Positions 15,001 to 21,000 of a stretch of 46,205 bases of DNA are shown here, piece after piece. Each line of letters starts with the position of its first letter. Position 1 is the stretch's first letter. The DNA comes from a bacterium (lineage in GTDB: Bacteria > Bdellovibrionota_C > UBA2361 > CALJRW01). A program made the position numbers. The stretch lies in NCBI GenBank assembly GCA_031385045.1, contig JANNBC010000049.1, positions 1 to 46,205 of the forward strand. The letters are read 5' to 3'.

Positions 15001-18000
15001 ATAACTAGCCAAGGCATTTAATAATGTGCGATTTGGGTTACCAGCACCTGGATGGACTGTCAGATCTGATGATTTATTAATCACAATTAAATCTTCATCC
15101 TCAAAAACGATATCTAATGGATAATCATAAGGAACAATCTCCTTGATCTGACCAAAGCTACTGAGATCCAGTTCAATCAAGTCATTAACCTTAAGTAAGG
15201 CTCCAGCCTTATTAATTATTTGTTTATTAATTAAGACACCTTGATCTTTAATAATGTTCTTAAGTTGCGATCTACTTAAAAACTTATACTCCTCTAAATG
15301 TTCTAATTTTTGAATTAAAAAAGTATCTAATCTTTGACGATCGGTATAGTTAACGAACTGAAGCATTATATATCTTTAAAGATTAGAATTTGGAATTAAG
15401 CTAGCTCAGTATTATTAGATTTTAAATTACTGTTGTCAAAACTATGATTTATCAGAGCTCTGAATAGATACCTATGGTTCGGTACTCACTGTTTCTATCC
15501 GACTAATAATCAATTCTAAGGCGGGAAGAAGTTCTTTCGGAACAGTTTGATCCACTGGAAGCATTTCTAGAATTTCTACTAACTGGGGATTTGTTATAAT
15601 TGGAATATTATATTTCTTAGCTAACTGAATTACTAACTCAACATTCTCTTGGTAAGCTTTGAGGCTTAGTGCATAACCAGTGGCTAGATCAACTTCAACA
15701 AGGCCAATTGCAAAACGTTTTTGGTTTGACATTCACTAGTTTTTTAATTCTGAAAGCCTAGTTCAAGTTTCGTCATCTTCTTCGGAGCGAGAGATAACAA
15801 CTTGATCAATTAAACTACTATTCGAAGTATTTTCTGAAAAGTTGACTATTGTTTTATGAAAATCAATTAAACTGAAGGGCTTATCGAGGTAGGATAAATT
15901 ATCAAAGAAACGTAATGAAGCATCCCATTGCTGTCGATTGCTAGTGGTTAAGATAAATTTAATATTATTAAAGCGATCTCGAATAATATTTAAGAAGTCG
16001 ATAATGTCAGTCCCCTGCTGATCCAGATCCATCATTAAATATTGTGGATTAAAATTTGCTTTGGCCAAGTAAGTAATCATTTGACCACGATTATTTAGTT
16101 GAAAAACTTTAAAATTTTGCTGTTCAATTGCCTGCAAGATACGTTCTTCTAGCTTTTCTGTGCCAGAGATAATTACAAACGACTGCTTAAATTCCTCAGC
16201 AGGCCCTTCAATTGTTTTAAAACTTATTTTATCTTTATTGTAGTGTGGCAAATAAATACTGAAGATACTGCCTTGATTTAAATGGCTACTAGTAACGATC
16301 ACACCACCATGACCACGAACTATACTATAAGAGTTGGAAAGACCTAGACCACTAGCTGAGTAACTAACACCACTACCCTGATCACGATTCTTAGTTGTAT
16401 AAAAAGGTTCAAAGCAATGCTTTAGTTGTTCCTGATCCATCCCTAGACCATCATCAATCACATCTACTTGATAATATTTACCAGGCGGAAGTTCCGCGGA
16501 AACTTCATGACTAAATACTCTACGACTTGAGATTCGAATTAATATTTCTCCACCAATAGATTTCTCCATTGATTCCGCAGAGTTTTTAATTAAATTACTA
16601 AGCACACCTAATAATTTTTGCTGGTCAGCAAAAATTAAGGCCTGCGAAACTTCTTTAACTAAACGAATCTGAACTTGTTCCTGATAATATTCCTTCTGTT
16701 TTAAAATTTCATTTTCAAAAACAGAAACTAAATCTACAACGTCCGAATTTAAATTTTCAATTTCACGTAAATAAGACATTTGCTTAATTAGATCTGCTCC
16801 TTTACTAGCATAGCTACAAATATCTTGAAGTGGCTTCTTATAAGGAGAATCATCGGTAAACTTAGTCTCCAAAATTGAAGCCTGTCCCATAATTGCTTGA
16901 AGTAAATTATTAAAATTATGAGCGACGCCAGCCGCAAGCAAACTAACCGTTTTCATCTTATCAGAATTGGCAATCTGTAATTCAAAACGACGAGTTAAGA
17001 GAGCTGAGGCAACTTCATTAGAAATACTTGTTAAGAGTGACATGTTGGCTAACATGCGCTCGCGACTATTCAAATTTGGTTCAATAGCTATCAAACCTAC
17101 TACCTGGCCAATACTTACCAAAGGCAGAATGAGTACACAGGCAGGTTTTAGAATATCCATAATTCTGTTAATCCCAGAACACTCTGCTCGATCATGACGA
17201 TCCAGTAGCATCGGGCGCTTTTCTGCCAATGCTTGATCCATGAAATCATGTCTTAATGCCAACTCAATTTGAATCTCATTAATGTTTTGACGCATTCCTG
17301 GACCTTTGCCATAAATCCCTTGAATATGACTACCACTATTATTCATCACACCAAACCAGATTCTTTTAACAGCAAATAATTGTTCGACTACAGCGCATGA
17401 GTTTTGACCAATCTCTAAGTGAGTCAAAGATTTGGTTAATGATTTACTAAGTAAGAAAAGTGTATTTACAGAATCAGCTTGTTTTTTTTCAGCTAATAAA
17501 TACTCTGCATTATAAGTTAGCTTGGCAATTTGACTAGCAACGGTATCTAGCAACTCCAAATCTTCATTACTATAATGATAGGATTTTTTAGAAGCTAAAA
17601 AGAAAGCACCAACAATTGAGGGATTATTACCGAGATCATTAACAATCAAGGGCATCGCAATCATTGAGCCATAAATTGGAGCTAAACATTGCAGGGCGTA
17701 ACCTTCAGCCTCTTTCGCAAAATCTTGTAATACTAATCCATATTTATTGTGACAAACAATATCCACAAGATTGCCTTCTTGTCCTAAGTAACCCCACATC
17801 CCTGCAAAGTTAGGCTCAGGGACACCACGTATCGCTAGAAGATCAAATTTATCTTCAACACCGACTCCAAACCAAATCCCGCCCGCATCTGAGTTAGTTG
17901 CTGAGATTAAAGAATCTAAGGCCAGATTGGCAATTTGCTTTGGTTCTGTGGAGTTCTGAACACAACTAAGGATCTGATACAGTGTGTTATATCTTTTTGT

Positions 18001-21000
18001 TTGCGCTTCTAGTTTTAATTCGTAGTTTTTTTTATCAGTAATATCTAATCCAAAACCTTCCCAGCCAACAAGCTCTTGATTTTCAAAAATTGGCACTGCT
18101 GAAAACAGAATATAACATGTCTTTTTTGTTGAATAGTTCTGAAAAGAAATTTCTTTTGTAAAACTTCGGGGCTTTTTTATTAATCGATAAAAAGCCTTAC
18201 GTAAGGATCCATCCTGATTCTCAGAAAGGATATCTAGCCAAAGATTAGGGTTCTCTTCCAGCTGATGATTCTTTAATCCAAGAATTTTTTCAGTATCACC
18301 CAAAATTTCTGTAACATTCAAATTTAGATCACTGCGCAAGAAAAAAAGATTTCCTTTCTCTAGAATCCTCATGGAACGCAGTTGAGAGTTATTTAAATTG
18401 CCTCCACCAATCGTAATCGCAGATTGATCCTGAATGAATAGAATCGCCCGATTAAAGTTTTGGCTACTAGCTTCCAGTTGTAATAAATAAATTTTCTCAT
18501 CTTCCGTAACGGCGTGATGCCCTTTAGCTTGAGACTCTAAAAACTGCCTTGTTCCACGCAAGACTTCACTAATTAAAGGCCAAAGTTGTTTAGCAGAAGT
18601 TGACCCAAGCAGTTGTTCAATAAAGTTATGAATATCTGTTCCGATGATATGACTTGTTTTGAAACCAGTGACTTGTTCTAAGCCTGAGCTAATATAGGCA
18701 ATCTGTCCATTTCGAAGGATCTCGACAATCACCCCCCGGGAATTAGTATCATCTATCTCCTCAGCTAACAGGTCACTCGCTAAATTTTCAGCAGCTGTAA
18801 TGATATGAGTTTTTTTATCTTCTTCAGTCAAGATTAATATTTATTGATAAAAATTACCTTAGAACGCCGAACTTTTACTTCCATACTATCTAAAAGTAAA
18901 AGTCGATATTCTGCCTGAAGCCGACTAGCAATAAGTGGATCGCTTTGTTCTTCTCTAGATTCATTTTTAACTTCCTCTGAATCCATAGACAGGGCAGTTA
19001 ATAAAGCTTTTTTTCGAAGCAGGAGTTCCAAGCCAAAAGCTAAAAAAATTAATAAAGATACCTGACCCATCAAATCATCAAAATCAATAAAAGTTTGCGC
19101 CACAGACTGATTCCAGTTAATCGGGATTACAATGGCAAATAAAATTAGCAAAGAAATAACTAAAATTAATTTCAATATTTCTTGTTTACCAGCAGTGACC
19201 CTAGCTCTCAAGTTATCTAAAGGATTAATTTTTCGCAGATCAAATAGTTTTTCTCTGATGGAGAATTGAAACCGACGTAAAAATAAATCAATTAAAACCA
19301 AAAAAATACTAGCAACTAGCATGGAACTAAATAATATTTGAAAAGATACCAAAATAATTCTTAAGAGCTCCTGAACATGCGGTGCTCCCAAGTTCCCTAG
19401 AATGGATTTTAACAAGATTTCAATCGTTACCCAATAGTGATTAAATTGGAGAAAAAGTAGATAGCCACTTAAAAGCAACAATAAGAGTCCTCGAGTTGTA
19501 AAATAATGTAAAAATTGACCATTTATACTGGCTTTCCTGAGCTTCTTACTACTTGCTGGGTGTTGTTTCAATGGAATACTCCCGATGTGATAAGTAGTAA
19601 AACAATCATTTTAATAAAAAAGATCTCACTAAAAAATGAGCACTGCGGGTATAATTTATTAACAAACATAAAAAATAGCTGGATCATCAAAAAGCAAAGA
19701 GCAATCGGAAAAATTAATTTAAAACCTAACTCTAAACTTTGAAGACACAAAGTTATACCCTCTTGCGCCAGTGCTTCCCAATTAGCAATCCTAGTCAGAC
19801 TAAGGACTATTTCTTGAATTAATTTTAATAAAAAATCTTGCTCTAGAAACATAACAAATAAAATAATTCGAACACCTTGCGCCAGTTGCTGACTAGAAAC
19901 AAAGTCATCTGAGCCAAAAAAGACGGCATAGTTCATACCTCGCAGGTTTTCTGTAACTTCAAAGAGAATGAGCAAGCTCCAAAACGAGAATAACAGAGTA
20001 AAACTGATTATTATTCCAATAATAAAATTGAGTCCTAAATTTAATTCTAACTGTGACAAATCAAAATTATTACCTAATAGATATCCACAAATGATCAGTG
20101 CAATCACACCTCTTCCCAAGAGACCTGAGACATTTAAGTTGTAAGGTAAGAGGATTAATGCACCCAAGACCCGAAAGTATACTGCTCCAAATTCTGGCAA
20201 CAAGCTTGCTAACAAATTAATTTCCCCCAATTATAATTATCTGTTCCAAGCAAGATTGAATAAAATTAATAAAGTTTAAATTCCAACTTGGGAAAAAAAC
20301 TAGAATTGCAATTGCAGCAACTGTTATCTTAATCAAATAAAGTAAAGTCTGTTCCTGAACTTGAAATAACGAGAAGATAAAATTAAATGCAAAACTGATA
20401 ATGGCCACGAATCCTAATGGCCAAATCAATCCCCAAAGTAAAAGGTTAATTGTTTGACCAAGCAGATTAGTAAACATTTTAGTCGTAGGATAAAATAAGT
20501 GACTTAATAATTAGTTGCCAAAAATCAAGTCCGACAATTAAAATTATTTTTAAGGGCAAGGAAAGTAAGACTGGACTAAACATCATCATCCCTAGCCCCG
20601 CAAGTAAATTAGCGATTAAGAAATCAATAATTAAAAATGGTAACAGTACCATTAGTCCCATTTGGAAGGCCTCCTTTAATTCACTTAATAAGAAAGCTGT
20701 TAATGTTGTTGCAAAATTATTTTTGGTTTCATCCGTCTCCCTTTGGCTCTTAGCTAATAAACTTGCTAGAAAATGAAGTTCTTCTTCTCCCGCATGCTGG
20801 CTAATAAACTCTTTCCAGGGCTGAGTGATTAGTGCTGATTTATTGATTAATTCCGACAAGGATAGTTTTTCTAATTTAGTATTTAGTAGATCGCTAGACT
20901 GTAAATAGCTACTTGTCTGATCCCAAACTGGCTCCATCACCATTAGGCTAATAGCCAAAGAGAGGATTCCAATAATAATTCCAGATGGCACCTGTTGAGC

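Follow-up and report, generated by a model that had tools for sequence, protein, structure and literature searches.

The purpose of the cut in switch proteins of the SctU/FlhB family has been debated for twenty years, a trigger, flexibility or the release of an inhibitory piece having been considered, and to our knowledge autocleavage at the NPTH motif is regarded as a hallmark of nearly all type III export gates. The locus described here resembles those of such proteins (YscU, EscU, Spa40/SpaS, HrcU and FlhB) in its membrane part, linker, C-domain fold, chain boundary and position behind sctRST, yet differs in that the switch is specified by two genes, lacks NPTH and consists of chains that are never covalently joined, so that the ratio of the two parts is not fixed at 1:1. 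Stand-alone relatives of the post-cleavage domain (FlhX, YlqH and HP1575; TIGR00789) accompany full-length FlhB as a spare part, often beside fliK. Furthermore, two chains support secretion in engineered switches, namely Xanthomonas HrcU, the halves of which work in trans when engineered apart (HrcU 265-357), and Salmonella SpaS cut by an added protease, according to the accessible sections of PMC3040844 and PMC4620466; these are laboratory constructs, whereas the state reported here occurs naturally and is fixed throughout a class. The rhizobial secretin RhcC1/C2 and HrcQA/QB are, in the available text of PMC3574062, core components encoded in two ORFs with a gene between, although they are other components and no self-cleavage is replaced. 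With the Myxococcales NF-T3SS (needleless T3SS* and short locus), as presented in the available portions of PMC3459982 and PMC12075869, the system appears to share an early-branching position, predatory deltaproteobacteria-like hosts, two sets per genome, the lack of a typical secretin and a link to Tad pili; the comparison is one of descriptions rather than sequences, and a split sctU is not described in those portions. No natural, fixed split of SctU was found in the literature searched. Stand-alone FlhX and an engineered in-trans C-domain have already been published.

In the current work, a DNA stretch of 46,205 nucleotides (the window) from a member of a Bdellovibrionota-related class was analysed. 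The three minus-strand ORFs of a preliminary description (245, 1,022 and 86 aa) were all recovered, and the locus comprises the following features:

15472..15732, minus strand: CC, a SctU-CC/FlhX-like stand-alone post-cleavage domain (86 aa; best NCBIfam match TIGR00789)
15763..18831, minus strand: hybrid histidine kinase, PAS-PAS-GAF-GAF-HisKA-HATPase-receiver (1,022 aa; Pfam and NCBIfam)
18834..19571, minus strand: SctU-N, a non-flagellar SctU with membrane part, linker and first cytoplasmic strand (245 aa; Pfam, NCBIfam and family profile)
19568..20230, minus strand: sctT (Bac_export_1, E 6e-13)
20217..20477, minus strand: sctS (Bac_export_3, E 3.7e-6; SctS the best model)
20479..21126, minus strand: sctR (185 bits with the EscR/YscR subfamily model, which has a cut-off of 179; scores better with SctR than with FliP)
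21123..21920, minus strand: probable SctP/FliK-like ruler, weakly assigned by position (no family match for the window copy)
21917..22213, minus strand: probable SctI inner rod (weak model matches in orthologues)
22274..22651, minus strand: conserved 125-aa protein upstream of the cluster (17 frames in the order set; no Pfam match for two orthologues)

With a probability of about 0.7, we consider this locus (gene order sctI-sctP-sctR-sctS-sctT-sctU-N-kinase-CC) to be the operon for the export gate of a non-flagellar type III system that is as yet uncharacterised and was vertically inherited through the class; in this system, CC would fold round a strand of SctU-N. SctP and SctI are designated as probable on weak matches: at the SctP position Flg_hook was weakly matched in two of four relatives scanned (E 0.0035 and 0.034), while the SctI family (44 frames in the order set) yielded T3SS_basalb_I at E 0.0037 in 2/5 orthologues and weak SctI model matches in 3/4. 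The kinase gene starts 2 nt past the TAA of sctU-N. Frameshifting or read-through past this stop was discarded, both other frames being without a continuation, and so was an assembly error, because a contig from another study (run X2) spans the stop over 18541-18877 with 0 differences. A promoter and terminator scan returned 35 sites versus 31 expected.

SctU-N carries an N-terminal membrane domain homologous to FlhB/SctU, its C-terminal domain being encoded by a separate gene rather than in the same polypeptide. As previously reported, the 245-aa ORF covers positions 3-257 of 335 of Pfam Bac_export_2 (E 3.8e-17; 63 bits, cut-off 24.4) and the 86-aa ORF positions 289-332 (E 0.079). The best NCBIfam model of SctU-N is SctU (positions 2-260 of 341), and its family profile retrieves Spa40/SpaS at E 5e-39, profile position 256 corresponding to Asn257 of solved Spa40/SpaS. 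The earlier claim that the split falls exactly at the asparagine of NPTH did not hold, since the ORF ends two residues past the autocleavage position Asn243, and NPTH is absent. All 100 complete SctU frames of the class (from 80 and 20 loci) end 0-19 residues past this column (0-13 in the 20), none with Asn-Pro there; Asn occupies it in six (4/80 and 2/20), the usual residues being E, R, G, S, D or K. This count rules out a conserved terminal Asn, which on sequence comparison is a chance feature of the window's genus, and the motif is therefore better described as lost than as split at its asparagine. When 1.84 billion representatives were searched with SctU-N, the best 150 matches were all of 232-290 aa with Asn-Pro at the column in 0/150, and no fused SctU was found for the class among these or the 100 complete frames.

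The missing C-terminal part is, as had been proposed, encoded separately behind the kinase gene, at 15472-15732, and CC is a stand-alone protein of ~90 aa homologous to the FlhB C-domain. Its best NCBIfam match is TIGR00789 flhB_rel (E 2.9e-7, 30.6 bits), below the curated cut-off of 117.35 bits, which is reached by none of 91 genomes of the order, true FlhX copies included. The CC family profile retrieves FlhB chain 3b1s_B at E 1.7e-20, and K5 of CC aligns with T265 of YscU. In its predicted structure (pLDDT 76.8) every top Foldseek row is an FlhB/SctU C-domain, with a best E of 0.017 and a TM of 0.71. That the two genes represent the halves of a SctU-type switch is borne out by the less diverged relative L088, in which they tile NCBIfam SctU 1-259 and 258-336.

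The preliminary description had placed the split in genomes of the order; it proved to extend class-wide (100/100 frames). CC is linked to sctU-N in 77 of 83 readable loci, the remaining six having yielded no CC at the locus; the gene order R-S-T-U-K-CC is retained across 21 families and in other orders. SctU-N forms one clade apart from FlhB, CC forms one clade, and both trees display the same division between the order and other orders. This distribution supports, at the level of sequence, an ancient and fixed two-gene arrangement. Of seven metagenome loci, two were of the split type and the other five carried an ordinary SctU of full length, close to the Desulfovibrio type; among the best 25 of 309 plasmid records matching SctU-N, all were ordinary sctU/flhB loci or unannotated. 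Homologue searches gave five close matches for FlhX and two for the SctU of the second export-gate set (set A), and a single-protein locus search returned the query's own locus alone.

The kinase, first described as GAF-GAF-histidine kinase, does possess these domains, and two weakly matched PAS domains and a receiver complete it. It is 91% identical to a same-genus copy, and its core is CckA/VirA-like. In orthologues His638 occurs in 66/67, the N, G1, F and G2 boxes are intact and the receiver Asp935 occurs in 34/67. Its single hydrophobic stretch lies inside GAF2, and the protein is probably cytoplasmic. The reported placement of a kinase inside the split stood in 94 of 99 readable loci, where it follows sctU-N, but it is dispensable there: in four loci of two families (L119, L123, L248 and L249) CC directly follows sctU-N, which excludes the kinase as an obligatory spacer. 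The kinase would act as an active, co-transcribed sensor, probably controlling expression or timing of the system through some regulator; no functional link between it and the switch emerged.

Assembly of the two products is supported by a modelled complex of SctU-N with CC, which scored 0.64 as compared to 0.00 for the best control, the mark for this score being reached by 116/157 solved pairs and 2/215 mismatched pairs. Runs agreed in at least 96% of contacts with a partner pLDDT of at least 72, and strand 239-242 of SctU-N was positioned between CC strands 8-11 and 43-47, although this result may reflect memory of solved FlhB/EscU domains. Of the hard-wired cleaved state put forward before, the two halves and their fixed arrangement are supported, and assembly is predicted by the model. 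SctU-N would enter the SctRST gate and present its last beta-strand in the cytoplasm, where separately translated CC would fold round it to give the two-chain domain that autocleavage generates elsewhere; the pair may then act as substrate switch together with SctP. We propose that, because the two-gene SctU-N/CC would give this same domain, neither the catalytic Asn nor the PTH loop was retained. As the motif is gone from the class and each product has a gene of its own, it is the two-chain state, and not the cutting, that selection would have kept.

A gate without CC, locked in one secretion mode by SctU-N alone, with CC as an FlhX paralogue serving as flagellar spare or kinase partner, appears unlikely. 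Such gates do exist here, given that set A SctU is conserved without CC; Salmonella is locked in late secretion when FlhB-CCD is removed (accessible part of PMC13344023), and FlhX can partly replace FlhB-CC in Helicobacter (as cited in bioRxiv 2021.08.29.457346). However, the set of the window (set B) keeps the strand that CC would need (of 32 rows, at least 90% have Val239) and that set A has lost, CC is linked in 77/83 loci, and it persists without flagella: it is the only TIGR00789 match in the window's genome (G000) and in G008, G007, G009 and G048, in which FlhB and FlhX were not found, and none of seven flagellar queries was found in G000 (94.9% complete). CC was also discarded as partner of set A SctU, which stops short of the strand both in G000 and in 4/4 relatives.

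With respect to the origin of CC, we give about an even chance to the adoption, by a truncated SctU, of a duplicated flagellar-side FlhX, which would render the switch chimeric. CC shares with FlhX a length of ~90 aa and a free N-terminus immediately ahead of the second strand, and groups with it in three trees (SH-aLRT 92 in a quick tree; 57/80; 89/86) while SctU-N lies on the non-flagellar side with FlhB apart at 96/96; moreover, TIGR00789 is the best model of the window's CC. Since CC most resembles this stand-alone family, it may have been recruited from there instead of arising by fission, and the split of one gene, as previously worded, is unproven. Unlike FlhX, CC makes up a clade of its own, provides the sole C-domain available to a truncated non-flagellar SctU and coexists in some genomes with a separate true FlhX, the retention of which also fits adoption. 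A one-residue deletion is common to CC and all FlhX rows but occurs in some full-length SctU/FlhB as well, and is therefore no clean FlhX marker. Moreover, the alignment has only 78 columns, free domains may converge, SctU and FlhX models are nearly equal for L088 CC (62.9 and 61.8 bits), and a grouping of CC with SctU is not rejected (AU p 0.345; 0.334). This last result equally suits the original proposal, to which we assign somewhat below even odds, that one sctU was cut at its cleavage site and a kinase gene came between the halves; CC indeed lies downstream, begins at the residue expected and, in the four loci mentioned, comes immediately after sctU-N. Yet the best trees never unite CC with SctU (whose C-domains are monophyletic at 99/91), no fused form was seen in the class, and the four adjacent cases fall within the order and thus look like kinase losses. 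Overall, we lean slightly towards adoption from these sequence comparisons.

If switching proceeds by ejection of the C-domain, as proposed for flagella in the accessible part of PMC13344023, resupply would be possible because CC is made from its own gene. By analogy, the switch might be re-armable, with fresh CC resetting the gate from late to early mode and the kinase timing the supply, and CC would then be the first protein of the FlhX type whose role is obligatory, on a non-flagellar gate for predation or attachment; we regard this extension as doubtful. The class offers natural material for asking about CC exchange, switch reversibility and the purpose of FlhX proteins, and the locus draws attention to a non-flagellar type III system, early-branching and so far undescribed, whose genes appear as truncated or flagellar in the output of annotation pipelines.

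A decaying relic, that is a pseudogenised sctU interrupted by kinase insertion, is excluded for the class, with the same boundary in 100/100 frames and SctN-type ATPases in most relatives, and is very improbable overall. The observations in its favour concern the window's genus: SctN and SctL were not found in G000 or G008 of this genus, where tblastn yields only F1 and Rho, CC has a long branch (2.25) and SctU-N is 51% identical within the genus. Nevertheless, frames are intact and rough pN/pS values versus G008 are below 1 (CC 0.24, SctU-N 0.45). Judged from gene content, this genus has a reduced machine (SctN, SctL and a flagellum were not found) with fast-evolving but intact gate genes, and the window copy may not secrete because both genomes are without the SctN/FliI match present in 59 of 61 class genomes; relative G101 has an sctL-sctN pair outside its flagellar operon. 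Two secretins per genome, of unassigned type and none identified as dedicated, were present in 5/5 genomes, and a needle-like candidate was obtained only at E 0.72 (Atlas 0.86). SctR, SctS, SctU, SctV and SctJ score higher with non-flagellar than with flagellar models, whereas SctT is better matched by FliR, and one sctV follows tadB/tadC.

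The switch protein SctU of the export gate in the window (set B) is encoded by two minus-strand genes, one for a truncated protein (SctU-N) and one for a separate SctU-CC/FlhX-like protein (CC), with a kinase gene between them.

20479-21126, minus strand: sctR
20217-20477, minus strand: sctS
19568-20230, minus strand: sctT
18834-19571, minus strand: SctU-N, 245 aa, matching Bac_export_2 positions 3-257 of 335
15763-18831, minus strand: kinase, 1,022 aa
15472-15732, minus strand: CC ORF, 86 aa

The last residue of SctU-N lies two positions past Asn243, no continuation behind its stop was found in the other frames of the window DNA, the stop codon is spanned without differences by a contig from a second study, and the kinase start is located 2 nt past this stop codon. 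Run X1, as a possible origin of the window DNA, was left out of the evidence on this stop. In a profile of 32 SctU-N proteins, Asn257 of the solved Spa40/SpaS chain corresponds to position 256, while the profile built from 32 CC proteins places YscU Thr265 opposite Lys5 of the window CC and matches the post-cleavage chains of FlhB (E 1.7e-20), EscU and YscU. In L088, the locus of a less diverged relative, SctU-N covers positions 1-259 of the NCBIfam SctU model and CC positions 258-336.

The range of the split was assessed at 101 loci, being the window and the best locus from each of 100 relatives (60 from an order-level and 40 from a phylum-level search), which were picked from the listed matches mainly by score and therefore represent genomes with a strong listed match. 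The window SctU matches 68 of the 91 genomes of the order, and the SctU family profile, with FlhB matches counted in, 121 of the 124 genomes of the phylum. CC homologues carry the NCBI names Bdellovibrionales, Oligoflexia, Deltaproteobacteria or Dadabacteria, and one relative's locus is labelled as an uncultured Bdellovibrionales MAG; we take the class of these relatives to be UBA2361 in GTDB. SctU occupies two genes with a conserved boundary and a lost motif: a closed SctU frame is present in 100 of the 101 loci, and all 100 frames stop 0-19 residues past the alignment position of the NPTH autocleavage Asn (median 5 residues in the first 80 loci, at most 13 in the last 20). The preliminary description had placed the split exactly at this Asn; the boundary does lie at the autocleavage position, but the residue found there is Asn in only 6 of 100 frames (otherwise E, R, G, S, D, K, Q or A) and the window ORF runs past it. 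Asn-Pro was found at this position in none of the first 80 class loci, nor among the best 150 of 1.84 billion representatives, all of which are 232-290 aa long and three of which have the Asn. Because the same boundary recurs across loci and Asn is rare at this position, the split is, judging from these alignments, ancient and fixed, and the Asn in the window's genus incidental.

At the genetic level the two-gene SctU is solid, as far as sequence can tell, and no natural two-gene SctU was found described in the text of the open-access literature, a body that includes few subscription papers and was taken without figures or supplements. Excerpts of published work report split secretin and SctQ genes (PMC3574062), and the Myxococcus T3SS* is known via citing literature, likewise in part (PMC12075869, PMC10469934, PMC3459982). 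Atlas clusters of ~260 aa labelled Pseudomonadota and Planctomycetota provide no more than a lead to a possible split outside the phylum. On a Sinorhizobium sojae plasmid (L183), a full-length SctU without the NPTH motif represents another route to losing autocleavage.

CC may have arisen by adoption of an FlhX copy or by fission of sctU. FlhX has been described as a small FlhB-C-like protein that often adjoins fliK and can partly stand in for FlhB-CC in Helicobacter (bioRxiv 2021.08.29.457346; PMC9321776). Adoption agrees with the best NCBIfam match of CC being the stand-alone FlhX model TIGR00789 (E 2.9e-7, with SctU at 4e-4 and FlhB at 6e-3), and with CC forming one clade in three trees (support 98; 89/98; 100/99) that adjoins FlhX in each (92; 57/80; 89/86). 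Grouping CC with SctU is not rejected by AU tests (p 0.345 and 0.334), which counts against adoption and in favour of fission; the C-domains of full-length SctU, however, form their own group apart from CC (99/91), contrary to fission. Nor is a grouping of CC with FlhB (0.147) rejected, or one of SctU-N with the FlhB proteins of the order itself (0.105). The SctU-N sequences make up a single clade (100/98), which falls among the non-flagellar proteins and is separated from FlhB at 96/96; the later trees were built without long-branch or redundant rows (the window's own genus, Photobacterium, the Sinorhizobium CC and, in the last tree, B. ubonensis). Many genomes of the order have three matches, namely CC, a genuine FlhX and an NPTH-bearing full-length FlhB, and the nearly closed genomes of two relatives (G023 and G101) each contain FlhB, FlhX, SctU-N, CC and the SctU of a second export-gate set (set A). 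Since CC adjoins FlhX whereas SctU-N is on the non-flagellar side, we lean towards differing origins of the two halves.

A kinase gene is located directly 3' of sctU-N in 94 of the 99 loci with readable downstream DNA (two loci were excluded because their contigs end), and in one locus this place is taken by a gene other than kinase or CC. CC belongs to the locus in 77 of the 83 cases that could be judged, namely those where it was found or 4 kb was readable (18 ended too early). Stop-to-start gaps are mostly <50 nt, which fits a single operon. The kinase had been described as a GAF-GAF-histidine kinase inside the split; these domains are indeed present within the order PAS, PAS, GAF, GAF, HisKA, HATPase and receiver (with a CckA/VirA-like core), but in four loci from two families (L119, L123, L248 and L249) CC follows sctU-N immediately, with its own start and no kinase between. 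Among 67 orthologues (486-1,249 aa), His638 is kept in 66, the ATP-binding boxes likewise, and the receiver Asp in 34. Identity to the copy of the same-genus relative G008 is 91% for the kinase (as for FtsH), 76% for CC and 51% for SctU-N, with synonymous sites so near saturation that ratios are rough. Given the conserved His638 and ATP boxes and this 91% identity, the kinase is predicted to be active and is strongly kept; it is tied to the switch by position alone.

In a Foldseek search with the CC monomer model (pLDDT 76.8), the top rows were all FlhB/SctU C-domains, their E-values being weak (0.017 for the best, TM 0.71). The model of SctU-N residues 185-245 with CC scored 0.64 versus 0.00 for the best control, with at least 96% contact agreement between runs and a partner pLDDT of at least 72; the mark applied, reached by 116 of 157 solved pairs and by 2 of 215 mismatched ones, is roughly applicable to this pair. 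Because the two halves of a split gene often pass through their resemblance to structures already solved, the score reflects such resemblance and not binding. In the modelled complex, SctU-N strand 239-242 sits between CC strands 8-11 and 43-47, so that SctU-N and CC may complement each other by strand insertion. Such a pair would dock early substrates and would be released by the ruler, and CC, coming from its own gene, could be resupplied. According to published work, autocleavage precedes assembly and matters via flexibility (PMC6140923; PMC4620466), HrcU-C functions in trans (PMC3040844), and FlhB-CCD is an inhibitory piece that FliK ejects (PMC13344023). The set A SctU of the window's genome ends ahead of the CC-accepting strand, as in 4/4 relatives, and this accounts for the failure, remarked on earlier, to find a CC partner for set A. 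This SctU is even shorter (224 aa), its whole cytoplasmic domain missing, and its locus (G000:C8:422-10372; L196) contains FHA, FHA, sctJ, sctRST, this sctU, a SycD/SctY-like TPR gene and two sigma factors.

Upstream of the window sctR are probable sctI and sctP genes, and a second locus contains a FliA-like sigma factor, sctJ, a small needle-like gene and sctV, to which relatives add sctQ, with sctL-sctN elsewhere. FliI/SctN matches occur in 59 of 61 class genomes, mostly two or three each, and were found in neither the window's genome (G000) nor G008. A tblastn search of G000 (94.9% complete) with SctN, SctL, SctQ, FliO, SctO, FlhB, FlhX and seven flagellar proteins returned only F1 and Rho. 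Because SctN/FliI, SctL and flagellar genes were not found in G000, the window's copy is, by its gene content, part of a reduced version of the system, and the finding is firmer for the class than for the window's genome. Among the genera sampled, only that of G000 and G008 combines two type III gates with an apparent absence of these genes.

The 93-aa gene before sctV (G000:C38:44923-45204; L198:11924-12205), kept in 20 aligned class genomes, is a weak needle-subunit lead (PDB E 0.72; in the Atlas, 0.86 for a Myxococcota cluster that is 11% T3SS_needle_F); should this be borne out, the 'needleless-type' systems would possess a filament. In G000 (C7:10296-20035; L197) and G023 (L245), a Tad pilus operon bordered by Ser/Thr kinase genes has a further sctV immediately after tadB/tadC, an arrangement that recalls the Myxococcus Kil/T3SS* coupling. 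Some relatives have a FliO-like gene ahead of sctR in the non-flagellar operon (L086:11957-12451, L120:6578-6889), while loci of other orders (L157-L175) have a coiled-coil gene, SctO-like by position, before sctR instead of a ruler-like gene, and an FHA-domain gene 3' of CC. A conserved 125-aa protein without family, encoded in the window at 22274-22651, precedes the cluster in 17 frames of the order set. Further window genes include a lone Flp pilin gene (32984-33175), a single ORF (37737-40034) that joins an N-terminal GNAT acetyltransferase domain to an arginyl-tRNA synthetase and, at the contig end, a Gp49-like/HTH pair of toxin-antitoxin type (45196-45982).
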